A DNA stretch of 64,000 nt from NCBI GenBank assembly GCA_963709405.1, contig CAVPXM010000013.1, forward strand, positions 32,001 to 96,000, given 5' to 3'. Below are positions 3,346-40,581 of this stretch, piece by piece. The DNA is from an uncultured Nitrososphaerales archaeon. Its GTDB lineage: Archaea; Thermoproteota; Nitrososphaeria; Nitrososphaerales; Nitrososphaeraceae. The position numbers and the translations under genes are program-made. The notes under the pieces were generated by a model. The model made no database searches and was not told where the DNA came from. It saw only the letters and a program-made list of their open reading frames with translations. How positions within the stretch are numbered: the first letter of the stretch is position 1; every line of letters starts with the position of its first letter.

Positions 3346-4759
3346 ATGAAAAATAAAAAAGCCAATAACAACAGCAATGAAAAGAAAGAAGACGACAAAC
3401 TGAAGAAGAACGATGACTTAGTTAATCCTAATCAAATTGCGCCAATTAGTTGTTGTACTTGCACGGATAGGTTACATTTCTAATTACCTACATGGGTTAC
3501 ACTTTTCTGTTTAGTTCTCGTATGTGTACTGGATGTAATTAACCTTTGTAGGAACATCTCCGATGGAGTAAGACCATTTATGCCTCCATGTTCTCTGGTT
3601 TCGTTATATGCTTTAACAAACATGTCGTATCTTTGTTTACCATCATCTATGTTTGGTATATCTTCTAATGCTATGAATTCACTCTTTACAATCTTGTTAT
3701 ATGCTTCTACTTTGCCCTGTAACTGCGGATATGATTTTGGTATTTGCTTATCTTTTATCTGATTATGTATAAGGAAATGTCTGAATATTCTGGATGTAAA
3801 CTGTTTACCGTTATCATGCATCATCATCTTAGGCTTACCATTAATCATTATCCAGTCCTCTAATACATTAAGAACATCCACTGACCTCTTTCTTTCGGAC
3901 CACTTGCTAGCTACCTTCCTAGAACAATCATCTAAGCAACTAATGATGTAATTCCTTTGACTGGAATTACTCAGATAGAAAGGGCCAAGGATATCCACTT
4001 GCACCATATCATTTGGATGCTTCATGACAAACCGTTTGTAAGTTCTTGCTTTGGCCTTACACATGAGGATATTAAGACAATGTCTCTTTAGTATCTTGTA
4101 TATAGTTCGGGTGCTTAATGAGATTCCAATGATTCTTTTTAGTCGAAACTTGATCCTATTACATCCAAATCTCTTAGTTAATCGTAGATCAAGTATAGTC
4201 TCTTCTACTTCTGGTGTTACCTTCCTGTAGTTGATTTTATGAGGCCTTCTGAAGTTATCTGATAGGCCTTCTATCCCTTTCTGCTTGTATCTATTATTCC
4301 ACTTGTAGTAAGTCTTTCTGGATACACCATATCTCTTACAAATATTACATATGGTATCGCCAGTCCATTCTTTTTCGTGTATTAGATTAAACCTTGTTCT
4401 GATTTCTATATGGATTCACTTCCCGACAGAAGTGTAACCCATGTCTGTAAGCTATAATGTCACCTATGTCAGTAAGTACAACAATTAGTAATTTATGGCA
4501 ACAATATTCTCCTATGGCCTGGAGCGAAATATATAACGAGTATATTAATTACACAAGAAGAATGACTGAAATATATAATGAATACGCTGAAAGCTCACAG
4601 AGGATGACACAGCTGTATAAGGAACTGGCTGCAAATGCAGAGAAGACGACTGAATTGTATAAAGAATCTGCCAATAGGACAGAAAAAATGACCAAATATT
4701 GGTTACACTTCCTTCGGATGAAGCCATTCTCAAAAAATAAAGAAGGAAAACAAGAATAA
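3346..4759 (+). pseudogene. Small helical hypothetical protein interrupted by IS481
   Basis: ATG 3346 reads MKNKK...APIS up to the TSD and continues in frame (NLWQQYSP...) after the IS. Confidence 0.75.
3451..4483 (-). mobile_element. IS481-family element, copy 1 (1033 bp)
   Basis: TGTTGTACTT...AAGTACAACA terminal IRs, 6-bp TSD ATTAGT, rve DDE transposase (QVD, HDNG, GKVE). Confidence 0.95.
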
Positions 4760-12340: not shown

Positions 12341-14150
12341 CTATTCTAACTTTCCTTCTGTTAATGGTCCTATTGGAATCTGCTCTCTTCTTAGTTTGAG
12401 TTTATTGAATATATCTGCAGATGATTGCTGTGGTGCTGTCTCCTCCTCTTTTATTTCTATACCAATCTCACTCTTTATTACGTCTCTTCCTTCTCTTGCA
12501 CCGATGAGTATTATCTGTGCATTTTGATAGTCTATGAATTTTGTATCTTTGGAAAGAGACACAAACCTTACAGCTTCATCAAATTCATTTAAGAGCCTAT
12601 CCCAAAATTCGATACGATTATAGCTCGATGTTGCTTTTGCTAAAGTATGGCCTGTATCCAGAAGAAGAATGAGAAAGAGGATGATAAAAAGGATAATCGC
12701 ACCATCATAACCATTCCAGATGAATTGTGGGATGAGATTAAAGTAATTTTACCCAGAGAGAAACCACTCAAAACAGTGGGTCGGCCAATTGTACCATACA
12801 GAAGGGTACTTGATGGAGTTTTATACATCCTTAGAACTGGGTGCCAATGGAAGATGCTACCCAAAGAGTATGGATCGGGTTCCACATGCCATAGAAGGTT
12901 TCAGGAATGGAATAAACTGGATGTTTTCAAAAAGACATGGGTTCGATTACTGAAAATATATGATCGAATCATTGGTATCAACTGGACATGGCAATCAATC
13001 GATAGTATGGCAATCAATCGATAGTATATCCATAAAATCGCCTTTAGGGGGGCGATGACCGGAAATAATCCCACGGACAGGAGCAAACTGGGCACAAAAA
13101 GACACATTTTAACAGACAAAGAAGGTATACCGCTTTCGGCGGTCATTTCATCTGCTAGTACCCATGACATTAAACTGGTAATAGATATGGTTGATAATTC
13201 AGTTATTAAAAAGCCGTCATCATCATCCAAACCGAAATCAAGAAGAAAGGGAAGAAGGAGAAGGTTACAACATCTATGTCTTGACAAAGCATATAATTCC
13301 ACACAAGAAGAACAGGAACTAATCAGGCGGGGATATGTTACTGCACATTAGTCCCAAAAGAAAGAAGGGTGAAAAAGAGGAGGAGGTCAAGACGGAAACG
13401 CAACCTTCCTTAAACCGGAAAAAACATTCTGCAAAAAGATGGGTTGTGGAAAGGACAAACTCATGGCACAACAGGTTCAGAAAACTGTTCACACGGTATG
13501 AAAAGAAGGCAGAGAACTACCTTGGACTGGTACAGTTCTCCTGTTTTATGATCATCTGTAGAAAGATAATTTTGGGATAGGTTCTAAGACTTCTTGTGGA
13601 TATTTTGGAGGTTCTTCTGTACTAGGAAGATTTGTTGGTCTTGCTATTTTGGGATTCATTACCGAAATAACATAACTTGCTTCTTTTTCTATACCTAATT
13701 CTTTTTGAGCTTCTCCTGGCTCTTTTGGCATTTCAAGGACGTAGGCTAATTCTGTATGATTTTGATGCTTTACAATAGCATACTTTCCTTCTCCAACTGG
13801 TCTTGCAGCATCACCTCTTCTAAATTCATCCGATGAAAGCGCCTTTGTAAGCTCATTGGTATCTTTAAAAATACCACAAACTCTGGCCCAATACCGTTCA
13901 GATGCTCTAGCTTCAGTCTTTCTGTCTTCGGGAAGTGATTTTTTGCCTATAATAAAAAGCCTGTATAGCTGGCTCTATTCTGCTCGGGTGCAGTTACCAT
14001 AAAGAAGCGTCGAACATCCTCAATACCCTTTACCTCTTCAGCAGCTTCTTTGGCCTATAGAAAAAGTATATGTCGCCTTGCTCTAGAATTTCAGCTTCAT
14101 TATTATTGTCGTTAACCTGCTTTCCTTGTTCTTCTTGTTGATTCACCTCA
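12341..14150 (-). pseudogene. Conserved hypothetical protein interrupted by IS5
   Basis: Removing the IS restores YPQEVL/NEFDEAVRFVSLSK; upstream part GDIYFFYRPK...ARPVGEGKYAIV...HTELAYVLEMP has extra frameshifts. Confidence 0.7.
12593..13584 (+). mobile_element. IS5-family element; transposase inactivated
   Basis: IRs GAGCCTATCCCAAAATT / AATTTTGGGATAGGTTC, TAA TSD; RTGCQW, LDKAY and RWVVERT motifs; 19-bp tandem duplication at 12988-13025. Confidence 0.93.
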
Positions 14151-14379: not shown

Positions 14380-14459
14380 GGAGCGGGAAGGGAGAGAGTG
14401 GTATAGTACTGAGTGCGTTCGGTACTATACCAACATGCTATCCTCTCTCTCCCCGCCCC
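14380..14459. repeat. Nested inverted repeat/hairpin upstream of radA copy A
   Basis: Inner stem TGGTATAGTACTGA / TCGGTACTATACCA; outer purine/pyrimidine arms GCGGGAAGGGAGAGAG / CTCTCTCTCCCCGC. Confidence 0.8.
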
Positions 14460-14475
14460 ATAGTATCTAGCCTCG

Positions 14476-14510
14476 TTATATATCAGTCAAAGTAGATCAT
14501 GCATCAAGTC
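14476..14510 (+). promoter_or_regulatory. Putative TATA box and palindromic element of operon A
   Basis: TTATATAT 45 bp before the ATG, then ATGCATCAAG; the same layout occurs upstream of copy B. Confidence 0.55.
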
Positions 14511-14520
14511 AATAAAAATT

Positions 14521-15528
14521 ATGTCTCATGTCAGCGATCTACAGCTAGATGATATACCGGGAGTACAGCCACATCTAATAAGTAAGCTGAGACAAGCTGG
14601 TATCCAGTCAGTCCTTGATCTAGCTGTATCTGTCCCCCAGGAGCTTGCTGCAGGCGGAGAAGGTACCATAATTTCCGCCGATACAGAAGTCATATCAGAA
14701 TTGGTATTGAAAGCCAAAAAGGCTCTAATTGACTCGGGGGCACTTATCAAAGAATTCTCTACTGCTGACCAAGTGTTAGAGAGAAGAAAATCTCTTGTCA
14801 GATTTACCACAGGTTCTAAAAACCTTGATGACTTTTTGAAAGGAGGAGTAGAATCCCAAGCTATAACAGAACTCGCTGGAGAATTTGGTTCAGGAAAGAG
14901 CCAAATATGTCATGCGTTATGCGTTACTGCTGCTAAAGGAACTAGGGGTCAAATTAACAGTATAATATTTGTAGATACTGAGAATACTTTTCGACCAGAA
15001 AGGATTCACCAAATAGCTGAGGCCAGGGGGCTTGATTCAGACGAAATAATGAAAAAAGTGTTTGTGTGTAAAATAGTTAATAGTGCTCAGCTAGAAGCCC
15101 TGATAAGAAACCTTGGCAAGTCAATTGAAGAGTATGAAGCTAGACTTGTTATTGTTGACAGTATTATCTCACTTCACAGAGCAGAGTATTCTGGCAGAGA
15201 AACACTAGCTGAAAGACAGCAGAGACTTAATGTCATGTTGCATAAACTCATTCGCTTAGCAGAGATATACAATATAGCCGTAGTGCTGACAAATCAAGTT
15301 CAATCCTCGCCGGATAATACCTATTCATTGAGAGCTACTGGCGGCAATATTATGGGCCATGCATGTACCTACAGAATTTTCCTAAGAAAGATCGGGCGAG
15401 ATAGAATGGCAATAATGGTTGATTCCCCACACCATGCATACGACCAAGTTAAATTTACAATAACTGAGAAAGGGGTAGAAAATAGTGAAGCAAAAATAGC
15501 AATAGAAGGTAGCGAATCAGGGTGGTAG
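14521..15528 (+). CDS. radA: RadA/Rad51-family recombinase paralog, copy A
   Basis: N-terminal HhH (IPGV), Walker A GEFGSGKSQ, DTENTFRPER, Walker B LVIVDS, GGNIMGH. Confidence 0.92.
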   Translation: MSHVSDLQLDDIPGVQPHLISKLRQAGIQSVLDLAVSVPQELAAGGEGTIISADTEVISELVLKAKKALIDSGALIKEFSTADQVLERRKSLVRFTTGSKNLDDFLKGGVESQAITELAGEFGSGKSQICHALCVTAAKGTRGQINSIIFVDTENTFRPERIHQIAEARGLDSDEIMKKVFVCKIVNSAQLEALIRNLGKSIEEYEARLVIVDSIISLHRAEYSGRETLAERQQRLNVMLHKLIRLAEIYNIAVVLTNQVQSSPDNTYSLRATGGNIMGHACTYRIFLRKIGRDRMAIMVDSPHHAYDQVKFTITEKGVENSEAKIAIEGSESGW

Positions 15529-15532
15529 TGGT

Positions 15533-17281
15533 ATGAGCCCTAACGAAATACTTTATCCTGACCCACATATAATTCCAGTACCACCTTCACCATCTTACCA
15601 ACAACCAATACCTCTCGTGACACTATCTGAGCTAATTCCAGGCAAGTATGTATCTACAACAGCAAGAATTGTTTACGTCAAGACTGTGGAAAGACAGGAT
15701 GCTCTTGGAAGCAAAACAATTTTTTCTGGAATATTAGAAGATTCTACTTTCAAGGTTCCTTTTATTAGCCACAAAATTTCATATCCTCTGATAAGAAATT
15801 CTATTTATAAGTTCAATTCTTCATACGTACATGAATTTCCTGTTGATAAATCTCTATTACTTGTACTGACTGAACATACAAAGATTGACTCAAAGAACGT
15901 TGAAGATTATAGAGATTTCATTTGGAGTCCAAAGATAGAATCAATAAAAAGACCAGTTAGAAGTGTTAGTTTGAACGGAATAATAACTACTGTACATAAC
16001 AATTCTGGGCTTATTAAAAGATGCAACAAATGTAAATCAATAATTTATGATACTTGTCCAAACAAATGTCCTTTAGATCAAGGCTGGGGTTGGGACCTAA
16101 GAGTTTCTTCTAGAGTGTATGATGGCTCAGGCTCAATTAAGATGGTTTTGACTAAAGACATAGCATCAAGAGTTTTGCATAGAAACCTAAGTGAGCTAAT
16201 TTTACTTGCATCACAGGATAAACCCCTGACGCAGAACATACAACAGCAATCGTCCTCTGTAAAAATAAAAATTCCAGAGAGTATAGAAATAATAGAGGCG
16301 GTAACAGAGAACACATCCTCTTCCTACAGAAGTAATGGAAAACTTATTGTAACTGACGGAAGAAACCTAGTTTTCTTTCCCTCAGAATTGGAAGAAGAGG
16401 AAGCACACAAGTTCTCAGAGCATGTCAAAAGACTACTAAAGACTTCCGACGTAGAAGATAGAAAGATAATCAGAAAGCTGATTGAAAAAGCACTTGACAT
16501 TAGCATCAAAAAAGTAACGAGTATGAGAATGATGCAGGGAATTTATCTTCTAGAAGAACCAATTTCCTTGTATAGATGTGAAAGGGCAAAACTATACCTT
16601 GGATTTTCTATTAGAGTGAGTTTGATAGATGACGGTATAGTCACAGTCGAAGCAACCCCCCAAGCCTACGTCAGAGAAAGTGTACTTGATTATGTTAAAC
16701 TAAGAAGAGAAAGAGGGGCAACTGCAAATGCCGTAGTACGTAATTTGTTGACATATAGAAACAAGGTAATAGTTGCACCATCTGGAAATTACGGCTGTAT
16801 TGTCGATGTCGTTGCCAAAAAGGCGGGGAACCAACAGGTATCTAACACTGACAATAGGAATTTGGTAGAATTCTGGAAACAAGTATACGGTATTGAGATT
16901 TCACCTGATGAAATTCCTCTACTAAAAGTAAAGATGATGAATTCTGAAAATGTTTTTACTTATCCCCCTAGTATGTCCTTTTTTGGTAATGATTCTTTAC
17001 TTATTTACGCAAATGTCCAGAGATTTATTGAAAATAAAAAATATAACCTAAAAGCAAAAATGGAAGATGTTGTCAGAGAAATACTACAGCAAGATCTAGC
17101 TATTGGCTCCGTAAAGCTAGAAGTAGAGGGATTAGCTGCTTCCCAACATTCGGATGTACAAAGCCAGCTCCTGCATGAAATAAGACAAAAATTGTTTGGA
17201 AGGAATGCTACAGCAAGAGGCTCAATTATGTTTGTACACGATGAGCTATGGTTTTTTCCTAATCAGATACAGCTTTTATAA
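15533..17281 (+). CDS. RPA-like OB-fold/Zn-finger protein with an inserted Argonaute N-L1-PAZ-L2-like module, copy A
   Basis: OB1 (SGILEDSTFKVPF); Zn-OB (SGLIKRCNKC..CPNKC..DLRV..YDGSG); PAZ-like LVEFWKQVYGIEISPDEIPLLKVK...YPPS; OB completed by LFGRNATARG at the C-terminus. Confidence 0.75.
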   Translation: MSPNEILYPDPHIIPVPPSPSYQQPIPLVTLSELIPGKYVSTTARIVYVKTVERQDALGSKTIFSGILEDSTFKVPFISHKISYPLIRNSIYKFNSSYVHEFPVDKSLLLVLTEHTKIDSKNVEDYRDFIWSPKIESIKRPVRSVSLNGIITTVHNNSGLIKRCNKCKSIIYDTCPNKCPLDQGWGWDLRVSSRVYDGSGSIKMVLTKDIASRVLHRNLSELILLASQDKPLTQNIQQQSSSVKIKIPESIEIIEAVTENTSSSYRSNGKLIVTDGRNLVFFPSELEEEEAHKFSEHVKRLLKTSDVEDRKIIRKLIEKALDISIKKVTSMRMMQGIYLLEEPISLYRCERAKLYLGFSIRVSLIDDGIVTVEATPQAYVRESVLDYVKLRRERGATANAVVRNLLTYRNKVIVAPSGNYGCIVDVVAKKAGNQQVSNTDNRNLVEFWKQVYGIEISPDEIPLLKVKMMNSENVFTYPPSMSFFGNDSLLIYANVQRFIENKKYNLKAKMEDVVREILQQDLAIGSVKLEVEGLAASQHSDVQSQLLHEIRQKLFGRNATARGSIMFVHDELWFFPNQIQLL

Positions 17282-17282
17282 T

Positions 17283-18072
17283 ATGTCATTTAACATGCAT
17301 TCTGCGTTAGAGCAATTCAATGAACATAGAAACACTTTGAAGATGACAACGGGATCTGCAGACCTTGACTCACTTATAGATGGTATACAGGAAGGTCTAT
17401 TCTATCTGTTTTATGGCAATAATCGCTTGGCTCTAGATGCACTAGTCTATACATTTCTTGTCAACTGTGTGCTGCCAATAAAACAAAGATATGGCTTTGA
17501 GTCAATGGCAGTTTGTCTTAATAATGTAGATTATTGTGATCAAAGAAAGACAGCTGCACTAAGCCCAGAGAAAATAGGAGTTGGCAGCAAAATGTGCTAA
17601 TATAGACCCAAAGATTATTTTTAAGAACCTATATGTTCACCCCGCATATAACCAGCAGCATCAACTAACGGTAGCAGAGCAAGTTGCTGACCTAATAGAA
17701 TCTAACAATGACATAAACCTGCTGGTAGTGAATAACATAACGAAATTCTTCCGCGAATCAAAAAATAAAATGGAAACTGCCAATATTCTAAAGGAAGTAG
17801 TAGGGATAATTAGCAGGGCCCGTACCAAAAACAAAGTGGCTGTGGCGTGTACTGGAGATGCAAATACAACGGCCAAAGGAATAATACCACGACCAATTGG
17901 TGGTATATACTTAAAACATACAGCAAATGTAATTGTACATTTCAAAGAATTCTCCAAGACCTCCGGTATCCCTTCATTTAAGGCCACGCTAATAAAGCAT
18001 CAATACACAAAGACTCCAAAATCTGCAGTTATGTATGTAAGAAAAGCTGGGGGAATGATGCTTTTAGATTGA
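17283..18072 (+). CDS. Inactivated RadA-like ATPase (iRadA), +1 frameshift near 17582, copy A
   Basis: TTGSADLDSLIDG start; Walker A lacks GK(S/T); Walker B LLVVNN; PIGGIYLKHTA. Confidence 0.75.
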
Positions 18073-18085
18073 GAGGTGTTGGAAA

Positions 18086-18445
18086 ATGGGCAGAATAACA
18101 CCATCATTTCGTCAATTGTATGAAGAAATAATATCAGAGCTAAGAACAGAGCTGCAGGCAGCGCTTGTAGATCTAGGCCACAAAAGTGCCTTTGACCTTC
18201 TGTTAAAAGAAGCCTGGAATCCGGAGCAGGCGGCTATGGGGAATTCTACGTTACCAACAGTAAGCGACAAACTTAACTTCATGGCATCTATCCATAATAG
18301 AAAACTAATTGCGGCATTATCAAGAGAATTAAAAGAAAAGGATTTGGAGATACAAGAACTCAGACAGAATATCAACTCGCTTGAAAATAAAATAAATGCT
18401 TTGGCTACTAAAACCAAACAAGTGGAAAAACAGGAGGTCCAATAA
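18086..18445 (+). CDS. PolB2-associated small helical protein (PPB2/arCOG07300-like), copy A
   Basis: MGRITPSFRQ N-terminus, helical/coiled-coil, directly upstream of polB. Confidence 0.75.
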   Translation: MGRITPSFRQLYEEIISELRTELQAALVDLGHKSAFDLLLKEAWNPEQAAMGNSTLPTVSDKLNFMASIHNRKLIAALSRELKEKDLEIQELRQNINSLENKINALATKTKQVEKQEVQ

Positions 18446-20637
18446 CGACGACCCGTTGCACTGGATGGCTTCTTGATGTATCTATTGACAACGATCATGC
18501 AATACTATGGATAAAGACCGAAGATGGACAAATCCTTAAACTAAGAGACTCATATCATCCAGGATTCTATATATTACCAAGAAACGAATCCGATGAATTA
18601 CATCTTTTTCAAATTCTATCTAGAGAAGAAGATATAACGGTAAGGGAGGAAAACAAGCTTACAAACCTTTTTGATAGTAGGAAGCAAACAAGACTAATTT
18701 ACGTACAATTACATTCCTTAAGATATTATCAATCTCTGCTAAAGAAGCTAGCTGAACATTCTCAAGTAAAGCAATTGTTCAATGCAGACCTTTTACACGT
18801 CCAACAATATCTCTTTACTAAATTAAAAATTGAACCTACAAGCAAAGTGAAGGTAGAATACAATGGATCAAAGCTACTTGGAGCAGATAAGGTTGATGAC
18901 ACCGATGATTTACATTCTCCCCCGTTTTCATTACTATATTTTGACCTTCATACGTATTCAGGAATACTTGCTTCAGATGACGCTATCAGGATGATTAAGG
19001 TAAGATATGAACAAAACGATGTCATATTTAATAATAGTGAAGAAAAGGTAATTTTGCAACAGTTCTCTGATTGTGTTCACGAAAAAAATCCTGACATTAT
19101 TGTTTGCATGGACAATTATGATGATGGTAAAGTGCTTCGGTATCTATTTGCCAGAGCAAAGAAGATTGGATTTCATTTGCTGCTTGGAAGGGATGCAGAA
19201 TTCAACGGAAGGATTTGCATCAGCAACAGTAGTTATAGAAAGACAACATACTTTGATGAATTCGGGTTTGCTGGATTAATAGAGCGAGCAAGATTTGGCT
19301 TTCTTCCTTTGGATTTGGCAGCCAAATATAGTATAAACCGTCTAATCGATGGCAGGAATTGTTTTGAACTAATTCAGAGAGAATTTATTATTCCTTCTAG
19401 GGGCAACAATCATGAGCATGTCAGAACTGTAGAGCAAATAATTTCAGGAGATAAGGGGGCTATGATAATTTCTCCGCAAATAGGTCTGCATGAAAATGTG
19501 CTTGCTTTAGACTATGATAGTGAATATGCAAATCTAATTGTAAACCACAATTTGAGCTATGAAACTGTTGGCGGGGAAACCATCCATCATCCAAAGAAAG
19601 GATTACTTCCTAGCATAGTTGAGCGATTCCTCAAAAGACGACTATATTTTAAAAAATTGTTAAAAGAAATACCCAGAGACAGTATAGAATCTGTATGGTG
19701 TGAGCAAAGAGTAAATTCACTAAAGAATATACTTGTTTGCCTTTATGGTTCAACTGGTTCTCTTTGGAATAGGTATGGAAATGTGCTTGCATTTGAGGAA
19801 ATCAATAGGCTATCTCGAGGAGTACTGATAAAAACAAAAGATATTGTACAATGGCTAGGTTATGAGCTAGTATATGCAGATACTGACTCTGTATTTATCA
19901 AGAGAACAGAATCTGCTAGAGATTATAATGAAGCTATAGGTACCCTTTCAAAGCAAACTGGTCTTTCAATATCAATTGACTACCATTACAAGTTTTTAGT
20001 TTTATTACCATTAGAAGCAGATGAAAGGATAGAAGTACTCAAACATTACTTTGGAATTACTTTTGACGGTGAGCTAGTGGTTAGAGGTATAGAGATAAGA
20101 AGACACGACGTCCCCGCTTTTATAAAGCAATTTCAAACCAACCTTCTTTATACGCTATTTGATTGCAAAGATTCATCTGAAATACTATCAAAAGGATATG
20201 AAAATGCTCTTTTACTTGTCACTCAAGCGATTGATGCGATCATGACGGGGGAAGGGATTGATGATAAAGATCTTGTAATCTCCAAGTTGCTGAGACAGGA
20301 TATACAAAAATACAAGAGTTTATTCCCCCATGTGTCTGCGGCTATTCAACTAAAAAAGTATCCTCTAAAAGGTGACACAATTCAGTATATTTACACAGAT
20401 TCAAAGCATAACAATCCTCTTTGTAGAGTAGTTCCTATAGAAAATACTAAATCTCTGCCCCAGGACGATAAAGAAAAGTACAAAGAAATGATACTTGATG
20501 CTGCAGAAACAGTTCTAGGATTTTTTGGCTTTGATAGGACTGTTTACAGCAATTTCAAGAGGAATACGAGAAGAAAAAAGTGGTATGAAGAATTAAGAGA
20601 ACAGAGAGTAAGTGACATAGAAACGGAGATGCTTTGA
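18445..20637 (+). CDS. polB2: Family B DNA polymerase, PolB2 group, copy A (probable ACG start)
   Basis: Motifs DYDSEY, KNILVCLYG and YADTDS; the frame is open from 18445 and matches the N-terminus of copy B (GWLLDVSID). Confidence 0.88.
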   Translation, partial: TTTRCTGWLLDVSIDNDHAILWIKTEDGQILKLRDSYHPGFYILPRNESDELHLFQILSREEDITVREENKLTNLFDSRKQTRLIYVQLHSLRYYQSLLKKLAEHSQVKQLFNADLLHVQQYLFTKLKIEPTSKVKVEYNGSKLLGADKVDDTDDLHSPPFSLLYFDLHTYSGILASDDAIRMIKVRYEQNDVIFNNSEEKVILQQFSDCVHEKNPDIIVCMDNYDDGKVLRYLFARAKKIGFHLLLGRDAEFNGRICISNSSYRKTTYFDEFGFAGLIERARFGFLPLDLAAKYSINRLIDGRNCFELIQREFIIPSRGNNHEHVRTVEQIISGDKGAMIISPQIGLHENVLALDYDSEYANLIVNHNLSYETVGGETIHHPKKGLLPSIVERFLKRRLYFKKLLKEIPRDSIESVWCEQRVNSLKNILVCLYGSTGSLWNRYGNVLAFEEINRLSRGVLIKTKDIVQWLGYELVYADTDSVFIKRTESARDYNEAIGTLSKQTGLSISIDYHYKFLVLLPLEADERIEVLKHYFGITFDGELVVRGIEIRRHDVPAFIKQFQTNLLYTLFDCKDSSEILSKGYENALLLVTQAIDAIMTGEGIDDKDLVISKLLRQDIQKYKSLFPHVSAAIQLKKYPLKGDTIQYIYTDSKHNNPLCRVVPIENTKSLPQDDKEKYKEMILDAAETVLGFFGFDRTVYSNFKRNTRRKKWYEELREQRVSDIETEML

Positions 20638-20799
20638 TGAAGACAAAAGGAGTTCTCGTGTATATTTCATACATATGAGCTTATCCTATGTATCTGATAA
20701 GTATCCTTAATTGAATCATCATATAAAAAATATCATAAAGGCATTAGAATAACCAAGGACAAAATTAAGAAATATGCTTTTGCCTATGTGCAGTTAATA

Positions 20800-21582: not shown

Positions 21583-22388
21583 ATGACCGACCACAAGATC
21601 GGAACACGTGAAGAGTGGCTTGCGGCCAGGCTAGATCTGCTAAAGGCCGAGAAGGAGCTGACGCGACGTAGCGACGAACTGGCGCAGTGGCGGCAGAGGC
21701 TGCCGTGGGTTCGAATTGATAAGGAATACCGTTTCGAGACCGACGAGGGCACCGCGTCCCTAGCCGATCTCTTCAGAGGACGTTCGCAGCTCCTCGTCTA
21801 TCACTTCATGTTCGGCCCCGAGTACACAGGCGGACTGCCCGGCGTGCTCGGCCATCGCGGACGGCTTCAACGGTTTTGCTGTGCATCTCGAACACCACGA
21901 CGTCGCGATGATCGGGGTCTCACGTGCTCCGATCGCCGCGTTGCAGGCCTACAAGCGCCGCATGGGCTGGACGTTCAGGTGGGCCTCGTCGCTGGATAGC
22001 GATTTCAACTATGACTTCAACACGTCGTTCACAGAAGAGCAGCGAGCTCTCCGGCAACCTGTACTATAACTACCACAAGGGTGGCATAACCTCAGGTTCG
22101 GAGGCCGGCTCAGAGGGCAGTCAAGACCGGCGTCAAGCTGATTTGGCGCTGACGCCAAAAGTGTTCGCTGCCATGACCGGAACCGACATCCCCACTTACA
22201 CTCGCGAGGCGCCGGGCATGAGCGCGTTCGCGCTCTCCGACGGCGTCGTCTACCACACCTACTCCACCTACGCTCGCGGTCTCGACGCACTCTGGGGAAT
22301 GTACCAGTGGCTTGACCGCGCACCGAAGGGGCGTAATGAAACTGGGCCATGGTTTCGGCGGCACGACGAGTACACGGAGAATAGCTAA
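21583..22388 (+). pseudogene. DUF899 thioredoxin-like protein, GC-rich, two frameshifts
   Basis: REEWLAARLDLLKAEKELTR, LFRGRSQLLVYHFMFGP, YHTYSTYARG, LDRAPKGRNE, spread over three frames. Confidence 0.88.
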
Positions 22389-25503: not shown

Positions 25504-27000
25504 ATGAGGAAGGAAAACTATTCATCCCGTTCTAATGAGAGCAACAAACCCAGAAAACAGAGAGCACTTGTTCTTCAGGGAGGCGGAACACTTGGAGCAT
25601 ATGAAGCAGGCGTTTTAGAGATATTATGCAAGACCCTATCTGAAGAAGACAAAGAAAAGAATAGAAAAGATGGATTATTATTTGACATTGTCGCAGGGGC
25701 GTCGATAGGTGCTATGAATGGCGCGGTACTTGTAAGTAATTTCCTGAATACTCATAGTTGGGAAAAAGCTGTAGAGAAACTTCAAAAATTTTGGACAGAC
25801 CAATTATCTGTAAAACAAATGGATGTCAGTGAAATAAGTAAACCTTGGTATAATAAATGGAAATCTAGAGTGCCAAAAGTAGCTTCTCCAGAAGGAGCTA
25901 GATGATACTATTCAGTTAAAAACCTGCTTCTTAATAATGTAGGAAACAATGTATATTATCTTTTGGATCCTATCGAGGACGAGAAATTTTTTGATAATTT
26001 GTACCAAGAGTGTGGTCCAAACACGGATAACCAAGGTTGTAAAGATCCAAATTGTAAGAAACCAAATTTTCTGAATAATTATTGGCTAGTTCATAGCTCC
26101 GAGCCATTACAAGAAAGTATCGAGAAATATGCTAATCTTCCAATACTGACTGATTATAATGACAATCAGCCTCCTGAAGGTGTTACTGTAACATTTGATA
26201 GTTATCCTAAAGCAGATGGCTCAAGAAAGTCAGAGTATAAAGTCACAACTAACCAAAAAAAGAAGGAATTAGTAATCAAGTACAATGACGGCATTGGCAT
26301 TGAACATATTATGGCAAGTGGCACAATCCCAGAATTCTACAAGTATGCGCAGATTCCTATCAATTCCACAGGCAGCCAAAAGGATCAAGACTCAACGAAT
26401 AAGCTTGCAAAAACTAGTGAAAATAAGGATGGAGCGCGTTACTTTACTGATGGAGGGGTATTAAATAATACTCCTTTTAGAGAACTCTTGAGTGCCCATC
26501 GAGAATATTGGAAAGATGTAAAAAAATAGATGAAATTCCAGACCTTGATGTATATATAGTAAATGTCCATGCTTCCAAAGTGGATAATGTTCGCGAGGAT
26601 TATGATGGTGTGAGGGAAAGACACCTTGACCTAACATATTGTGACAGAACATCACATTATGATGAAGAGAACGCACATCTGATATCAGACTACGCCAGTT
26701 TTTGTAACCAATTGAAGGAGCTTGTAGATTATGCTATAAATCAGACGACTGATAAAAACCAGAAACGAGTACTGAAGGATAGAGTCAATGGAATATTGTT
26801 AACAAAAACCTGCAATGAAACTGGTCTAAGTCACCTAAGAAAGTATGAGGACCTTCCTGGAAATGCATTCAATCTTAATGTAGCTTACGAATAGAGCGTG
26901 GTAGCCACATTAACGATGGTAACAGTAAAACAGGTGATTTAACACTTGAAACTATAAATAAACTAATAAAAGAAGGAAAGTGTGACTCATGGTTCTCAAT
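25504..27000 (+). pseudogene. Patatin-like phospholipase
   Basis: LQGGGTLGAYEAG, GASIG and TDGG; stop codon and frameshifts. Confidence 0.85.
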
Positions 27001-31984: not shown

Positions 31985-32056
31985 ATAATCGAAGACTGAA
32001 GGATTGATTGAGTTTGATATAACTATTTATAATCTGGGCTATATAGCCAATTATCA

Positions 32057-34005: not shown

Positions 34006-34076
34006 TTGGGAAGGGAGAGGATAGTATGGGTTAGTACGGTATTTTACCTATTGAAAGCTCCTCTCCCTGCCTCCAA
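34006..34076. repeat. Nested inverted repeat/hairpin upstream of radA copy B
   Basis: Perfect AGGGAGAGGA / TCCTCTCCCT stem plus an inner stem with G-T pairs. Confidence 0.75.
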
Positions 34077-34089
34077 CTGGCTTCTTCTG

Positions 34090-34121
34090 TTATATGCAAG
34101 TCAAGGGAATTGATGCATCAA
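34090..34121 (+). promoter_or_regulatory. Putative TATA box and perfect palindrome TTGATGCATCAA of operon B
   Basis: TTATATG at 34090 and 12-bp palindrome at 34110-34121, just before ATG 34135. Confidence 0.55.
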
Positions 34122-34134
34122 GCCAACAAAAATC

Positions 34135-35184
34135 ATGTCCCATGTTAGTGATTTGCAGCTAGAAGATTTGCCGGGAGTAGAACCCCATTTAATAAATAAG
34201 CTAAAACGAGCTGGCATACAATCGGTTTTAGATTTAGCTGTATCTATCCCACATGAGCTTGCATTAGGAGCAACAGAGTATGATAGTGGTGATCGTGGCG
34301 CAGTTACGGCTGATACAGAGACTATATCAGATGCAGTTTTAAAAGCCAAAAGAGCTCTCATTGAGTCCGGCGCACTTATCAAAGAATTCTGTACTGCAGA
34401 TCAAGTCCTAGAGAAAAGGAAATCCCTTGTCAGATTTACGACGGGTTCTAAAAACCTGGATGATTTTTTGGAAGGAGGAGTAGAATCTCAGGCTATAACA
34501 GAGCTTGCTGGAGAATTTGGTTCAGGAAAGAGTCAGATATGTCATGCATTATGTGTGACTGCTGCTAAAGCAGAAAGTAGCAGTCATATCAATAGTATAA
34601 TATTTATCGATACTGAGAACACATTTCGGCCAGAAAGAGTTCACCAGATAGCTGAAGCTAGAGGCCTTGATTCAGAAGAAATAATGAAAAAAGTGTTTGT
34701 TTGTAAAATAAATAATAGTGTTCAGCTAGAAGCCCTGATAAGAAACCTTGGCAAGGCCATAGAAGAGTACAAAGCCAAACTTGTTATCGTTGATAGCATC
34801 ATTTCCCTTCATAGGGCAGAATACACCGGGAGAGAAACGTTAGCTGATAGACAGCAGAGACTTAATATCATGTTACATAAACTCTTGCGATTAGCAGAGA
34901 TATACAATGTAGCGGTAGTTCTCACAAATCAAGTTCAGTCTTCACCAGATAGTACTTTTGGTGGCAGTAATTCCCTGAGAGCTTCGGGGGGTAATATCAT
35001 GGGCCATGCTTGTACATATAGAATTTTCCTTAGAAAAATAGGACAAGACAGATTAGCAATAATGGTTGATTCTCCCCTTCATGCATATGACCAAGTTAAA
35101 TTTACAATTAGTGAAAAAGGAGTAGAAGATGCTGAAGAGAAAAAAATGGCAGCAACAGTAGAAGGTAATGAGTTAGGGTGGTAA
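34135..35184 (+). CDS. radA: RadA/Rad51-family recombinase paralog, copy B
   Basis: GEFGSGKSQ, DTENTFRPER, LVIVDS; close paralog of copy A. Confidence 0.92.
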   Translation: MSHVSDLQLEDLPGVEPHLINKLKRAGIQSVLDLAVSIPHELALGATEYDSGDRGAVTADTETISDAVLKAKRALIESGALIKEFCTADQVLEKRKSLVRFTTGSKNLDDFLEGGVESQAITELAGEFGSGKSQICHALCVTAAKAESSSHINSIIFIDTENTFRPERVHQIAEARGLDSEEIMKKVFVCKINNSVQLEALIRNLGKAIEEYKAKLVIVDSIISLHRAEYTGRETLADRQQRLNIMLHKLLRLAEIYNVAVVLTNQVQSSPDSTFGGSNSLRASGGNIMGHACTYRIFLRKIGQDRLAIMVDSPLHAYDQVKFTISEKGVEDAEEKKMAATVEGNELGW

Positions 35185-35185
35185 A

Positions 35186-36965
35186 ATGAGCGCTAGCGAA
35201 ATACCAAGAACTATTCTTCAAAATGAGTCTCCTGATCCAAAGACTCTTCCAGCACCCCCCTACCAACTCAACGCCAACCATTACCTCTTGTAACATTATC
35301 AGAGCTTATCCCAGGAAAATATGCGTCTACAACAGCAAGGATTGTTTACATCAATGCAATACAAAAACAGGATGCTCTTGGAAGCAAAATGATATTCTCT
35401 GGAATATTGGAGGATTCTACTTTCAAGGTTCCTTTTATTAGTCATAGAATATCGTACCCTCTGATAAGAAATACTATCTACAAATTTAGTTCCGCTTACA
35501 TACATGAATTTCCTTCAGATAAATCGCTTTTACTTATAGTAACAGAGTATACAAAGATTGACTCCAAAAATGCTGAAGACTACAGGGATTTTATTTGGAA
35601 TCCAAAAATAGAATCAATAAAAAGACCAGTTAGGAGTGTTAGTTTGAATGGAATAATAACCACAGTACATAGCAATTCAGGGCTTGTTAAAAGATGTAAC
35701 AAATGTAAATCAATAATGTATGATACTTGTCCAAACAAATGTAGCCTAGACGCAGGATGGGGTTGGGATCTCAGAGTTTCTTCTAGACTGTATGATGGCT
35801 CTGGCTCAATTAAGATGGTTTTGACAAAAGATATAGCATCAAGAGTATTGCACAGAAACCTAAGTGAGTTAATTTTACTTGCATCTAAGGATAAGCCTTT
35901 GACGCAAAACCTACAACAAGAGTCTTCAGAATTTAAAATAAAAATTCCCGAAAGCATAGAGATAGTAGAGAGGCAGTAACTGAGAATACTTCCTCTTCTT
36001 CTTACAGGAAAAATGGAAAACTTATCGTATCTGATGGAAGAAATCTTGTTTTCTTTCCCCCCGAATTAGAGGAAGAGGAAGAAGGACATCACTTCTCAGA
36101 GCGAGTCATAAGACTATTAAAGACCTCTGATTTAGAGGATAGAAAGATAATCAAAAAATTAATCGAAAAAGCACTTGATATTAACATCAAAAAAGTAACT
36201 GGCATGAGAATGATGCAGGGAATATATCTTCTGGAAGAGCCTATTTCCTTGTATAGATGTGAAAGGGCAAAACTCTATCTTGGATTTTCTCTTCGGGTGA
36301 GTTTGATAGGAGAAGATAGTGAAGTTACAGTCGAAGCAACTCCCCAGGCTTATGTAAGAGAAAGTGTTCTTGATTATGTTAAATTAAGAAGAGAACGGGG
36401 GGCTACTGCAAATGCTGTAGTACGTAATCTTTTGACATATAGAAATAAAGTAATAGTTGCACCATCTGGAAATTATGGCTGTATCGTTGATGTTGTTACA
36501 AAAAACGCAGGAAGTCAACAGGTTTCAGAAACTGACAACAGAAGCCTTGTAGAATTCTGGAAGCAAGTATATGGAATCGAGATTTCACCTGACGAAATTC
36601 CTCTGCTTAAAGTGAAGATGATGAATTCTGAGAATGTATTTACCTATCCTCCCAGCATGTGCTTTTTTGGTAGTGACTCTTTACTCATTTACGCAAATGT
36701 TCAAAAATTTATTGAAAATAAAAAATATACTCTGAAAGCAAAAATGGATGACGTTATTCGAGAAATACTGAAGCAAGATCTAGCCATTGGCTCAACAAAA
36801 CTAGAAGTAGAGAAATTGGCTGCTTCCCAACATTCTGATGTACAAGGCCAGCTTTTACAGGAAATAAGACAGAAATTATTTGGAAGGAATGCCGTAGCAA
36901 AAGGCTCAATTATATTTGTACATGATGAGCTATGGTTCTTTCCTAATCAGATACAGCTCTCATAA
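35186..36965 (+). pseudogene. RPA/Argonaute-N-lobe fusion, copy B; two frameshifts (near 35255 and 35970)
   Basis: Colinear with 15533-17281; breaks at a C-run and an AG duplication, no internal nonsense codons seen. Confidence 0.75.
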
Positions 36966-37001
36966 AACAAACTGAGAGGATTGGTGGCGAGATAAACAAC
37001 C

Positions 37002-37804
37002 ATGTCAAATCAAGTTTCGTTTGAAATACATTCTGCATTAGAGCAATTCAATGAACACAGAAACACATTGAAGATGACTACCGGTTCGGCAGACCTTGAC
37101 TCGCTTATCGACGGTATACAAGAAGGACTATTCTATCTGTTTTATGGCAATAACCATGTGGTCTCTAGATGCAATAGTCTATACATTTCTTGTTAACTGT
37201 GTGCTGCCAATAAAACAAAGACATGGCTTTGAGTCAATGGGAGTTTGTCTTAATAATGCCGATTACTATGACCAAAGAAAGACTGCTGCACTGAGTCCAG
37301 AGAAAATAGGAGTTGGCAGCAAAATGTGCAGGTATAGATCCAAAGATTGTTTTTAAGAACCTCTATGTACATCCAGCATATAACCAGCAGCATCAACTAA
37401 CAGTTGCAGAGCAAGTTGCTGACCTAATAGAATCTAACAAGGACATAAAACTGCTGGTAGTGAATAACGTAACCAAATTCTTCAAGGAATCAAAAAATAA
37501 GATGGAAGCTGCTAATATCCTAAAGCACGTAATTGGGATACTTAGCAAGGTTTGTACCAGGAATAAGGTGGCGCTAGTATGCACAGGAAATGCAAATACA
37601 ACAGCTAGAGGAATAATATCACGACCAATAGGGGGAATATATCTAAAACATGCAGCAAATGTAATTGTACATTTCAAAGAATTCTCCAAAACCTCTGCCA
37701 TTCCCTCATTTAAGGCCACGCTAATAAAACATCAATATACAAAGACTCCAAAGTCTGCAGTTCTTTATGTGAGAAAAGCGGGAGGAATGATGCTTTTAGA
37801 TTGA
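37002..37804 (+). pseudogene. Inactivated RadA-like protein, copy B; frameshifts near 37160 and 37313
   Basis: Colinear with 17283-18072. Confidence 0.75.
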
Positions 37805-37840
37805 GTTCTTCTGTTGTTAGTAAACAAGGTGTTTTCACAG

Positions 37841-38210
37841 TTGGGTAGAATAATACCATCATTTCGACAATTATATGAGGAAATAATATCAGAACTAAGA
37901 ACGGAGCTACAGGCAGCACTTGTAGATCTAGGCCATAAAAGTGCATTTGATCTTCTATTAAAAGAAGCCTGGAATCCCGAACAGGCGAGCTATGGGGAAC
38001 TCCACCTTACCAACAGTCAGCGACAAACTAAATGTTATGGCATCAATTCACAATAGAAAGCTAATTGCAGCATTATCAAGAGAGTTAAAAGAAAAGGATT
38101 CTGAGATACAAGAACTCAAACAGAGCATCATCTCACTTGAAAATAAGCTGAATGATCTGGCTATCAATACCAAGCATAACGAGGAAGTGGAAAGACAGGA
38201 GCCGCGATAA
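37841..38210 (+). pseudogene. PPB2-like protein, copy B; frameshift near 37987
   Basis: TTG-GRIIPSFRQ; CAGGCGAGCT versus CAGGCGGCT in copy A. Confidence 0.75.
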
Positions 38211-38212
38211 TA

Positions 38213-40543
38213 ATGACAAGCTGCATTGGATGGCTTCTTGATGTTTCCATTGACAATGAACATGCGATACTATGGATAAAGACTGAGGATAACCAGATTC
38301 TCAAGCTGAGAGACTCTTATCATCCAGAATTCTATATATTACCTAGAAATGAATTTGATGGGTTACATCTTTTTCAAATTCTATCTAGAGAACAAGATAT
38401 CTCAGTAAAGAAAATTAGATGGGAGGAAAACAAGTTTACAAATCTTTTCAATAAGAGGAAGAAAAGACTAATTTACGTACAACTACAATCATCAAGATAT
38501 TATCAACCTCTACTAAAGAAGCTTGAGAATGACTGCCAAGTAAAGCAGCTATTCAATGCAGACCTTTTACATGTTCAGCAATACCTCTTTGTTAAATTAA
38601 AAATTGAGCCTACTAGCAAAGTAAAAGTAGAATACGACAGCGACTCCAGGCTGCTTAAGATTGTCAAGATTGACGATGAGGATGAAGTAAAGCCTCCCCC
38701 GTTTTCATTACTATATTTTGACCTTCGCACATGTTCAGGAATAGTTGCTTCAGAAGATGCTATCAGTCTGATTAAGGTAAAATACGCAGGAGAAGACATT
38801 ATGTTTGATGACAGTGAAGAAAAGGTGATTTTGCAGCAATTCTCTGACTATGTTCTTGAGAAAAATCCTGACATTATAGTTTGTATGGGTGATTATGATA
38901 ATGGTAAAGTACTTCGGTATCTATTTTCCAGAGCAAAGAAGATTGGGGTTGATTTGCAACTTGGAAGGGATGATGATGATGATAACAATCATTATTCTAA
39001 TACTTTAGAAAATCCTAGGATCATAGGAAGGATTTGTATTAGTAGTAGCTATAGAAAGACGACACATTTTGATGAGTTTGGCTTTGTGGGATTAATAGAA
39101 AGGGCAAGATTTGGTTTTCTTCCTTTAGAAATGGCTGCCAAATATAGTATACATCGTCTCATAGATAGCAGAAACTGCTTTGAATTAATCCAAAAAGACT
39201 TTGTAATTCCGTCTAGGATTCATAGCATTGACAACAGCAGCAATAATCACGAACATATCAGAACTATAGAGCAAATAGTTTCAGGAGACAAGGGAAGTAT
39301 GATAATATCTCCACAAATTGGGGTGCATGAAAATGTGGTTGCTTTGGATTACGATAGTGAGTATGCAAATCTAATTGTGAATCATAATCTGAGCTATGAG
39401 ACTGTCAGTTTATCAGAAGAAGAAAGCATTGTAGGGGATAGAAGAAGAAGAAGAAGAGTTGTTGTAGCAAACCAGCCAAACAAAGGATTACTTCCTAGCA
39501 TAGTAAAGCAATTTCTCAAAAGACGAATTTATTTTAAAAGATTATTAAAAGAACTTCCAAAAGACAGCAGAGAGTCTGAATGGTGTGCGCAGAGAGTTAA
39601 TTCGCTAAAGAATATACTTGTTTCTCTTTATGGTTCAACTGGTTCTCTTTGGAATAGATTCTGGAATGTGCTTGCTTTTGAGGAAATCAACAGACTATCT
39701 CGAGAAGTACTAATAAAGACAAAAGATATTGTACAAAGGCTTGGTTATGAGCTAGTTTATGCAGATACAGATTCTGTTTTTATCAAGAGCAAAACAGCAA
39801 GAGATTATAATGAAGTTATAGATACACTTTCAAAAGAAACTGGTCTTTCGATATCAATTGAATACCATTACAAGTTCTTGGTTTTACTACCATTAGAAGC
39901 TGATGAGAAGATAGAAGTACTCAAGCATTATTTTGGAATCACTTTTGATAATGAGATAGTGGTAAGAGGCATAGAGATAAGAAGACATGATATTCCTAAT
40001 TTTATAAAGCAATTTCAAACTCAGCTTCTATACACATTATTTGATTGCAAAGATTCATCTGAAATACTAACAAAAGGATATGAAAATGGCCTTTTACTTA
40101 TCACCCACGCCATAGACACAATTATGACTGGGCAAGGTCTTGATGATAAAGACCTTGTGATCTCCAAGTTGCTCAGGCAGGATATAGAAAAATACAAGAG
40201 CTTATTCCCCCATGTATCTGCGGCTATTCAATTAAGTAGGCATCCTCTCAAAGGTGATACAATTCAATATATCTATACAGATTCACAGCATAATAACCCG
40301 TTGTGTAGAGTAGCACCCATAGAGAACATACTATCAGAGTCTCTACCTCCATACGACAAGGAAAAATATAGAGAAATGGTTCTTGATGCTGCAGAAACAG
40401 TTCTAGGGTTTTTTGGGTTTGATAGGACCGTTTATGGAAATCTCAAGAGGAATAATGATGGGAGAAGAGGAAGAAGGAAATGGAGATGGTATGAAGAAAT
40501 ACGGGAACAGAGAGTAAGAGACATACATACTGAGACGCTTTAA
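38213..40543 (+). CDS. polB2: Family B DNA polymerase, PolB2 group, copy B
   Basis: Intact 776 aa; DYDSEY, KNILVSLYG, YADTDS; ExoI site degenerate (FDLRT). Confidence 0.92.
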   Translation: MTSCIGWLLDVSIDNEHAILWIKTEDNQILKLRDSYHPEFYILPRNEFDGLHLFQILSREQDISVKKIRWEENKFTNLFNKRKKRLIYVQLQSSRYYQPLLKKLENDCQVKQLFNADLLHVQQYLFVKLKIEPTSKVKVEYDSDSRLLKIVKIDDEDEVKPPPFSLLYFDLRTCSGIVASEDAISLIKVKYAGEDIMFDDSEEKVILQQFSDYVLEKNPDIIVCMGDYDNGKVLRYLFSRAKKIGVDLQLGRDDDDDNNHYSNTLENPRIIGRICISSSYRKTTHFDEFGFVGLIERARFGFLPLEMAAKYSIHRLIDSRNCFELIQKDFVIPSRIHSIDNSSNNHEHIRTIEQIVSGDKGSMIISPQIGVHENVVALDYDSEYANLIVNHNLSYETVSLSEEESIVGDRRRRRRVVVANQPNKGLLPSIVKQFLKRRIYFKRLLKELPKDSRESEWCAQRVNSLKNILVSLYGSTGSLWNRFWNVLAFEEINRLSREVLIKTKDIVQRLGYELVYADTDSVFIKSKTARDYNEVIDTLSKETGLSISIEYHYKFLVLLPLEADEKIEVLKHYFGITFDNEIVVRGIEIRRHDIPNFIKQFQTQLLYTLFDCKDSSEILTKGYENGLLLITHAIDTIMTGQGLDDKDLVISKLLRQDIEKYKSLFPHVSAAIQLSRHPLKGDTIQYIYTDSQHNNPLCRVAPIENILSESLPPYDKEKYREMVLDAAETVLGFFGFDRTVYGNLKRNNDGRRGRRKWRWYEEIREQRVRDIHTETL

Positions 40544-40581
40544 TACTAAGAAAAGGAGTTTCTTTGCAGGATTAGAAAAAG

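Follow-up and report, generated by a model that had tools for sequence, protein, structure and literature searches.

The 64,000-nucleotide (nt) stretch analyzed here, positions 32,001 to 96,000 of contig CAVPXM010000013.1 from an uncultured Nitrososphaerales soil archaeon (assembly GCA_963709405.1; hereafter the window), carries at 15533-17281 on the plus strand an intact open reading frame (ORF) with an ATG start, which encodes a protein of 582 amino acids (aa), P0001. This protein, named RPA-AgoN here, is an RPA-family member bearing an Argonaute-like N-L1-PAZ-L2 lobe that is predicted to lie within its second OB fold. It is encoded by the second gene of a tightly packed, co-oriented cassette of five, whose products are a radA-like recombinase, RPA-AgoN, a RadA paralogue (iRadA), a putative PPB2, and a putative PolB2 polymerase. 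The domains of RPA-AgoN are as follows.

15614-15898, plus strand: OB fold 1 (aa ~28-122), matching the Thermoplasma Ta0387 OB domain (PDB 2k75) in a family profile search (E = 3.7e-6) and in Foldseek (template modeling score on the target, TMt, 0.76), with model strands at aa 39-120.
15920-16216, plus strand: first part of OB fold 2 (aa ~130-228), with the Zn ribbon C164/C167/C175/C179 and helices, from the NF005553 match, the Pyrococcus abyssi RPA alignment, and the invariant cysteines.
16244-16522, plus strand: Argonaute N-like domain (aa ~238-330, approximate boundary), from model secondary structure, Foldseek matches to Argonaute N-lobes over 300-390 columns, and a PADLOC match beginning at aa 252.
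16523-16681, plus strand: L1-like linker sheet (aa ~331-383, approximate boundary), from a long beta-hairpin at aa 353-383 in the models and an Atlas lead.
16682-16987, plus strand: PAZ (aa ~384-485), the most conserved segment (0.64), from a Pfam PAZ match below cut-off at aa 421-482, matches in 11 of 18 family members, and the alignment with 3o7x.
16988-17152, plus strand: L2-like helices and strand (aa ~486-540, approximate boundary), from a helix at aa 493-519, a strand at aa 530-535, and the PADLOC match extending to aa 512.
17153-17278, plus strand: helix and beta-hairpin at the C-terminus (aa 541-582), interpreted as the closing elements of OB fold 2 (its helix, beta4, and beta5), from a collinear RPA segment, confident modeling, and the conserved residues G563 and F574.

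The N-terminal portion of the protein is related to archaeal RPA. The NCBIfam models NF005554 and NF004998 matched aa 33-223 (E = 4.1e-17) and aa 38-210 (E = 2.9e-16), and NF005553 (replication factor A) matched aa 137-227 (E = 1.9e-6), with scores far under the equivalog cut-offs of these archaeal RPA models (62.3 versus 447, 59.7 versus 556, and 27.5 versus 353 bits). Comparison of the family profile with PDB also gave weak matches to P. abyssi RPA (E ~0.06-0.14), and a single-sequence phmmer search of PDB returned nothing relevant. C164, C167, and C175 were present in every one of the 18 aligned homologues, including those as distant as 24% identity, and the fourth ligand, C179, is a Cys or His in these sequences; this pattern points to the zinc ribbon of the second OB fold. 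The full-length AlphaFold model (18 sequences) had a mean predicted local distance difference test score (pLDDT) of 80.9 and a predicted template modeling score (pTM) of 0.54, and a Foldseek search of PDB with this model retrieved both MILI (9ij5_A; E = 9e-11) and RPA (8oej_A, E = 3.1e-10; 8aaj_A, E = 1.0e-9).

The insert was folded alone (aa 236-541), yielding a model with pLDDT 87.7 and pTM 0.82. Among the 45 rows listed for this model in a Foldseek search of PDB, 44 were titled Argonaute or PIWI, and the remaining row was titled "protein-DNA complex" only. The best match was MILI (9ij5_A; E = 3.5e-12), with a template modeling score of 0.61 on the 306-residue query (TMq) over 341 columns, and the matches span animal PIWIs, human AGO1-3, and the bacterial Argonautes of Kurthia, Marinitoga, Thermus, Clostridium, Pseudooceanicola, and Chroococcidiopsis. 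The models begin with a domain of mixed alpha/beta structure, continue with a sheet made of a long beta-hairpin and then a PAZ-like barrel that has helices, and end in long helices, an order that fits N, L1, PAZ, and L2. At the sequence level, positions 33-268 of 666 in the PADLOC prokaryotic Argonaute (pAgo) model PDLC02428 "PprPIWI" matched aa 252-512 (E = 7.8e-6), and a profile-to-PDB search aligned the insert with the PAZ domain of mouse Piwi-like 2 (MILI, 3o7x). Pfam PAZ matched 11 of the 18 family members at E ≤ 0.1 (best E = 4.2e-5), and a precomputed PF02170 assignment was present in 3 of the 120 homologues listed. The Atlas clusters nearest to the insert were PAZ, ArgoL1, ArgoN, Dicer, and DUF4708 at 0.83-0.90, which we take as a lead only.

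Three P. abyssi RPA chains align to family profile positions ~116-224 and again at ~520-553, and the gap between these two segments comprises 4-10 residues in the chains versus ~300 positions in the query. The second segment shares an L-G-x-x-V-x-x-x-G motif and is not significant alone. In the model, aa 542-581 form a helix followed by a long beta-hairpin (11-residue hairpin) with pLDDT values of 79-92, and G563 and F574 are nearly invariant among the aligned homologues. When the C-terminal 50 residues were searched as a profile against PDB, a piece too short for this purpose, no RPA match and two chance-level matches (E = 0.14 and 1.1) were obtained. Because of the collinearity, the confidently modeled helix and hairpin, and the fact that OB fold 2 otherwise lacks its last two strands, we read the Argonaute lobe as an insertion within OB fold 2. 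The predicted insertion point lies between the beta3/helix part and the last two strands of this fold, and the assignment of the C-terminal piece as the predicted completion of its barrel is well supported by the alignment and the model together.

Argonaute proteins are defined by their MID-PIWI half. In RPA-AgoN no residues are left for a MID domain, as aa 1-237 and 541-582 make up the OB folds and aa 238-540 the N-lobe. Pfam Piwi (PF02171) had no match at E ≤ 1 in the archaeon's own genome (4.83 Mb, 91% complete), and at E ≤ 0.001 it was found in none of 121 sampled genomes of the family, this genome included, while control genomes responded. The protein is an RPA-family member bearing an Argonaute N-lobe and, because it has neither MID nor PIWI, by definition no Argonaute. 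Altogether, the results show this domain architecture and the lack of PIWI.

This architecture had been anticipated by the initial annotation, and each structural statement made there is supported. Its pair of RPA-type OB folds, with a Zn finger in the second, is borne out by the NF005554 and NF004998 matches and the invariant cysteines; its Argonaute-like N-L1-PAZ-L2 insert is recovered by the insert-only fold, for which the proposed AlphaFold and Foldseek comparison returned Argonautes and PIWIs, and by the pAgo hidden Markov model (HMM); and its limits of ~16250-17140 agree with 16244-17152. The suggestion that the C-terminal piece resembles the end of the interrupted OB fold gains from the collinear RPA alignment and the pLDDT of 79-92. 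No MID/PIWI gene had been seen in the window, and the proposed search for a MID-PIWI partner extends this absence to the own genome and the 121 genomes of the family.

The gene itself is functional and conserved, no ORF artefact, since its frame is intact, its homologues are many, its ratio of nonsynonymous to synonymous substitution rates (dN/dS) is ~0.10, and no indels are listed for it in three other assemblies. Among 8000 candidates scored from a 90%-clustered protein collection, 924 were homologues at E ≤ 1e-3, and a library of 50%-identity representatives gave 345 matches at E ≤ 1e-3 and 75 at E ≤ 1e-30. Every named homologue record is annotated "hypothetical protein," with Nitrososphaeraceae as the main source, and an Atlas search with the whole protein returned "hypothetical protein" clusters alone. 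No longer fused form of the family (>1019 aa) was found, which is weak evidence. The gene is under purifying selection, with a gene-wide dN/dS of 0.099-0.108 between P0001 and three orthologues and a minimum of 0.036-0.064 in PAZ. The major-residue frequency likewise is highest in PAZ and the OB folds (0.64, 0.63, and 0.61), with 0.51 in N and 0.46 in L2. Contigs covering the gene in three independent soil or peat metagenome runs have no insertion or deletion listed within it. We considered whether this copy is a pseudogene and rejected the idea, given the intact frame, the dN/dS, and the lack of listed indels. In the soil RNA run X20 (oligo-dT), 0.14 of the sampled words were present, and its contigs over radA and RPA-AgoN cover parts of a copy that is 90-99% similar, which is no proof of transcription. 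The disordered N-terminal tail (aa 1-27; 15533-15613) has a YPDP..LP.P motif that is kept in close homologues and absent from distant ones, and this motif could be a docking motif.

RPA-AgoN can be compared with several known systems. With archaeal RPA (P. abyssi, PDB 8aaj and 8oej) it shares tandem OB folds and a Cys-rich zinc ribbon between strands of the second; it differs in having two OB folds only, in scoring far under the equivalog cut-offs, in carrying ~300 inserted residues where P. abyssi RPA has 4-10, and in belonging to a PolB2 operon instead of being a housekeeping protein. With long Argonautes (eukaryotic AGO/PIWI and long pAgos) it shares the order and fold of N-L1-PAZ-L2 (TMq up to 0.61), and its HMM match falls in the N-terminal 40% of a pAgo model, whereas it is devoid of MID, PIWI, and any catalytic or 5′-end-binding module, its lobe is nested in another domain, and its context is one of repair and replication. 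APAZ proteins of the SPARTA/SPARSA type likewise couple a module related to the Argonaute N-lobe, encoded separately from MID-PIWI, to another functional domain. To our knowledge, APAZ modules are without PAZ and always paired with an adjacent short pAgo, and an Argonaute N-lobe away from PIWI is known only in this form. In RPA-AgoN, by contrast, PAZ is present and best conserved, and no Piwi gene lies adjacent to it or in the searched genomes. NgAgo-type halophilic pAgos combine an RPA-like single-stranded DNA (ssDNA)-binding OB fold with Argonaute domains in one polypeptide; in the passages of PMC8464042 that describe them, an N-terminal "repA" OB domain is added to complete Argonautes (N, PAZ, MID, and PIWI with a DEDX tetrad), whereas RPA-AgoN has the N-lobe only, nested in an OB fold. 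The earlier view that no RPA fusion with an Argonaute N-lobe is described needs a qualification: the combination of OB/repA with a complete Argonaute is known from these proteins (PMC8464042), whereas our literature searches gave no description of an OB fold that contains an N-L1-PAZ-L2 lobe lacking PIWI, or of such a gene in PolB2 operons, although the supplements of the PolB2 papers may list the gene.

The genes and elements that surround RPA-AgoN, a context absent from the initial annotation together with a second copy ~20 kb downstream, are listed below.

14389-14453, no strand assigned: long inverted repeat, AGGGAGAG...CTCTCCC, with the cassette radA ~70 nt downstream; it folds at -45.9 kcal/mol (z = -6.4), and 0 of 200 shuffles were as stable.
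14521-15528, plus strand: radA-like recombinase of 335 aa with an N-terminal helix-hairpin-helix and an intact Walker A motif (GEFGSGKS); NF003301 RadA, E = 5.4e-102, above cut-off; Pfam Rad51, E = 2.2e-70.
17283-18072, plus strand: iRadA, a RadA paralogue without Walker A, split by one extra G at 17583; Pfam Rad51 matches on both pieces, and RadB/RadA models match.
18086-18445, plus strand: small helical coiled-coil protein of 119 aa at the position of PPB2 (arCOG07300), from weak coiled-coil Pfam matches only and its place between iRadA and PolB.
18451-20637, plus strand: PolB2-type family B polymerase, copy 1; Pfam DNA_pol_B, E = 1.8e-28; YADTDS motif; 75% identical to copy 2 over aa 2-776.
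34089-40560, plus strand: second copy of the five-gene cassette, 80% nt identity, from self-blastn against 14475-20654.
40582-41499, plus strand: DUF72 gene directly after copy 2; Pfam DUF72, E = 1.6e-59.

The end of the radA-like gene and the start of RPA-AgoN are 4 nt apart. This radA is an extra copy, as further RadA homologues are encoded in the genome at C65 (56% identity) and C63 (45% identity). The GxxGxGK[ST] motif, present in the neighboring RadA, is lacking in the iRadA translation, and iRadA is unbroken in a single frame in loci L016, L018, and L023. In PMC11791011 and PMC4104785, iRadA, PPB2 (arCOG07300), and PolB2 are described as the PolB2 translesion "mutasome" operon, which is damage-induced in Sulfolobales, and PolB2 is presented as an extender of mispaired primer termini; PMC11791011 predicts that the products of the operon assemble into a multi-subunit complex. 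DUF72 is enriched beside PolB2 operons, and Orc1/Cdc6 is reported as another neighbor (PMC11791011, section 3.1). The cassette has the adjacent, co-oriented inactivated RadA, small helical protein, and family B polymerase that characterize this operon, and on the basis of gene order and the published neighbors DUF72 and Orc1/Cdc6, we assign the polymerase putatively to the PolB2 clade and the small protein putatively to PPB2. As far as the main texts of PMC11791011 and PMC4104785 go, the cassette resembles the published operon in its three genes and their order, in its DUF72 and Orc1/Cdc6 neighbors, and in its DxD motif, whose intact state is reported for some TACK PolB2, and it differs by the addition of an upstream active RadA and RPA-AgoN, which these main texts leave unmentioned. 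A complex prediction of the full protein with the neighboring RadA scored 0.00 in two runs without controls, and we draw no conclusion from it.

The pattern of the inverted repeat AGGGAGAG...CTCTCCC occurs 3 times in the window, versus 0.01 expected, and it recurs ~70-130 nt upstream of radA at 34012-34067 (copy 2), L017:4367-4420, L020:3698-3763, and L041:617-669. Candidate roles of this element are those of an operator, of a terminator for the gene upstream, or of a boundary of the cassette; no Rfam family was found in the window at gathering thresholds.

Loci L014-L046, 33 in number and all from other genomes, were examined for the linkage of these genes; at least six of them are contigs that were included twice. 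An iRadA match lies directly downstream of RPA-AgoN in all 33 and a radA-like match directly upstream in 29, the other four being cut or degraded, and PolB2 follows in 20 loci, i.e., wherever the contig extends far enough, with the exception of L037. All five cassette genes are kept in L039, where the homologue is 33% identical; a further Rad51-like gene lies after PolB2 in this locus (L039:14822-15811). At 25% identity, the metagenome locus L047 has RadA, the homologue, iRadA, and PPB2, and loci L049-L052 (~25% identity) carry a 440-aa form without OB fold 1, followed by iRadA, PPB2, and PolB2. An Orc1/Cdc6 homologue is divergently transcribed just upstream of this shorter form (L050:55-1209, minus strand; likewise in L051 and L052). 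Altogether, the results show that RPA-AgoN is linked to this operon.

Among the 121 genomes of the family, RPA-AgoN is present in 31, a tally that includes one unpublished genome (G376) with one fragment match, PPB2 in 27, and both in 26; the carriers belong to 8 of its 18 genera. A phylum-wide sample of 300 other genomes contained no member of the family but missed rare carriers, since family members exist in records labelled Thermoprotei, Bathyarchaeota, and Thaumarchaeota. One carrier (L039) is labelled Methylomirabilota bacterium and is probably a mis-binned archaeal contig.

Homology between the two cassette copies of the window ends within ~50 nt of the first start and ~20 nt past the last stop. 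In copy 2, RPA-AgoN (35254-36965) is frameshifted near 35970 and PPB2 is also split, while PolB2 is intact (38213-40543; 776 aa). In both copies, iRadA is divided into two overlapping ORFs by an extra G, which also gives the second piece a TTG start. In near-identical contigs from other soil runs, the base at 17583 is missing at depths of 9.52 of 9.52 (X3), 4.37 of 4.37 (X20), and 16.7 of 30.2 (X1), and the extra G is therefore a polymorphism or an assembly error. The frame of copy 1 PolB2 is open from 18451, with ACG codons where copy 2 has ATG and the first in-frame ATG, GTG, or TTG at 18775, so the gene may have lost its start or use a non-canonical one. The same contig carries a third, fragmentary copy of RPA-AgoN (aa ~225-361, with one internal TAA) ~8 kb before the start of the window (G000 C13, 23761-24147, minus strand).

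Cassette flanks vary between loci and consist of ordinary metabolic genes (IMPDH, methyltransferases, GNAT, and peptidase M19). Insertion sequence (IS) fragments are frequent in the window, and two inverted copies of an IS with an rve-type integrase core gene (3447-4483 and 41567-42603; 99.6% identical) bracket a ~38-kb region with both cassettes. Many genes in the neighborhood are broken as well (12647-13580, 21583-22388, and 25963-26529), i.e., an IS4/IS5-type transposase in three ORFs, DUF899 in two, and a patatin-like fragment. The region around the cassettes is either decaying or was assembled with indel errors.

From this architecture and context, we give a modest preference to the view that RPA-AgoN is an operon-encoded accessory factor of the PolB2 mutasome, extended by an active RadA, that binds ssDNA and 3′ ends; the ssDNA binding, the 3′-end binding, and the hand-off are what we infer. 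RPA binds ssDNA with 5′-to-3′ polarity from its first to its later OB folds, and a lobe inserted in the last OB fold would for this reason lie toward the 3′ side of the bound strand. In this scheme, the OB folds would bind the single-stranded template or resected strand, and the predicted PAZ pocket, on the 3′ side of the OB array, would capture a free 3′ end, which may belong to a primer that has stalled or is mispaired or to an invading strand. PAZ would protect this end and hand it over to RadA and to PolB2, the putative extender of distorted primer termini, with the OB folds replacing the missing MID-PIWI as the second nucleic-acid-binding lobe. We read the protein as such a two-lobed binder because PAZ and the OB folds are its best conserved parts and PAZ has the lowest dN/dS. 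The operon context makes 3′-end capture, proposed already in the initial annotation, more plausible: in an operon that also encodes an extender polymerase and an active recombinase, the simplest role would be to find, protect, and hand over 3′ termini, and the description of PolB2 in PMC11791011 as damage-induced and extending mismatched primer termini agrees with a partner that takes hold of 3′ ends.

Several observations weigh against this view. The Pfam PAZ match (PF02170) on aa 421-482 has an E value of 0.0022 and a score of 18.4 bits, under the gathering cut-off of 28.8, and with a full-length pTM of 0.54 the mutual placement of the lobes is uncertain. The putative membership of the polymerase in the PolB2 clade is drawn from operon structure. 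The main texts of PMC11791011 and PMC4104785 contain no mention of RPA, PAZ, Argonaute, OB-fold, ssDNA, or SSB, although their supplements may list the gene, and this silence on such a subunit implies that most PolB2 systems work without RPA-AgoN. Both cassette copies are defective here, copy 1 by the extra base in iRadA and a PolB2 without a canonical start and copy 2 by the frameshifted RPA-AgoN. Finally, the cassette is patchy in the family (31 of 121 genomes, 8 of 18 genera), with up to 9 matches per genome that are often fragments with stops, a pattern that also fits a selfish or rapidly turned-over element.

The retention of N and L2, although these segments are least conserved, raises the question of whether the N-lobe no longer binds ends and instead acts as a protein adaptor, a scaffold linking the RPA portion with iRadA, PolB2, RadA, or the sliding clamp in the manner of the APAZ-type N-lobes of short pAgos. 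N and L2 contact the other lobe in Argonautes, and the conserved YPDP..LP.P motif in the disordered tail of close homologues is compatible with docking, as is the multi-subunit complex predicted for the operon partners in the main text of PMC11791011. The strongest conservation and constraint nevertheless fall on PAZ, as expected for a pocket in use and less so for a mere scaffold; we consider an adaptor role unlikely. A different role for the PAZ pocket would be that of a PIWI-independent descendant or relative of Argonaute that delivers oligonucleotides, in which PAZ would hold the 3′ end of a short ssDNA or RNA, the OB folds would bind the template, RadA would place the end by homology search, and an error-prone PolB2 would extend it. 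We regard this as distinctly improbable; if true, the cassette would spread horizontally as a self-contained machine for DNA synthesis that is guided or depends on recombination, and the Argonaute N-lobe would be an autonomous 3′-end module beyond interference.

Two further readings draw on the distribution of the cassette. The limits of the duplicated unit coincide exactly with those of the five genes (14475-20654 versus 34089-40560, 80% nt identity), a third fragment lies nearby, genomes hold up to 9 matches, many with stops, the flanks differ between loci, IS fragments surround the cassettes in the window, and a conserved inverted repeat marks the upstream edge, all of which would suit a selfish or mobile cassette whose five genes self-propagate by recombination and in which RPA-AgoN serves the replication or priming of the element, not host repair. 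Yet the conserved unit encloses no integrase, transposase, or protein-priming signature, its downstream trio corresponds to a known chromosomal, damage-induced PolB2 operon with the usual neighbors, and purifying selection is strong, making this account rather improbable. The turnover of the cassette agrees with earlier reports of horizontal transfer of PolB2 and keeps the selfish reading alive. The homology to the Argonaute N-lobe, the patchy multi-copy distribution as in defense islands, and the patatin-like fragment and IS elements nearby could also point to guide-dependent, Argonaute-like interference, in which the lobe would bind small guides and a nuclease or PIWI would act in trans. This is the least probable account considered here: Piwi was found in 0 of the 121 genomes of the family, there is no MID to anchor a guide 5′ end, the conserved unit has no nuclease, and its conserved neighbors are all replication or repair genes. 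The other four cassette proteins gave only weak, generic P-loop or coiled-coil matches in PADLOC, the best being RadA to "mad8" (E = 3.7e-6), and PolB2 gave none.

RPA-AgoN thus presents a complete N-L1-PAZ-L2 lobe, with PAZ as its most constrained part, that is apparently built into an RPA OB fold and co-inherited with a putative translesion polymerase complex across divergent TACK archaea, an arrangement that would place an Argonaute module in DNA damage tolerance. If 3′-end capture by RPA-AgoN is true, the PolB2 mutasome, known from genetics and models only, would gain a new class of subunit, and there would be a concrete route by which the 3′ ends of primers or invading strands reach a specialized archaeal polymerase. 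PAZ-type end recognition would then be used in DNA repair besides silencing and defense. Altogether, the architecture and the operon context suggest a new way of holding DNA 3′ ends.

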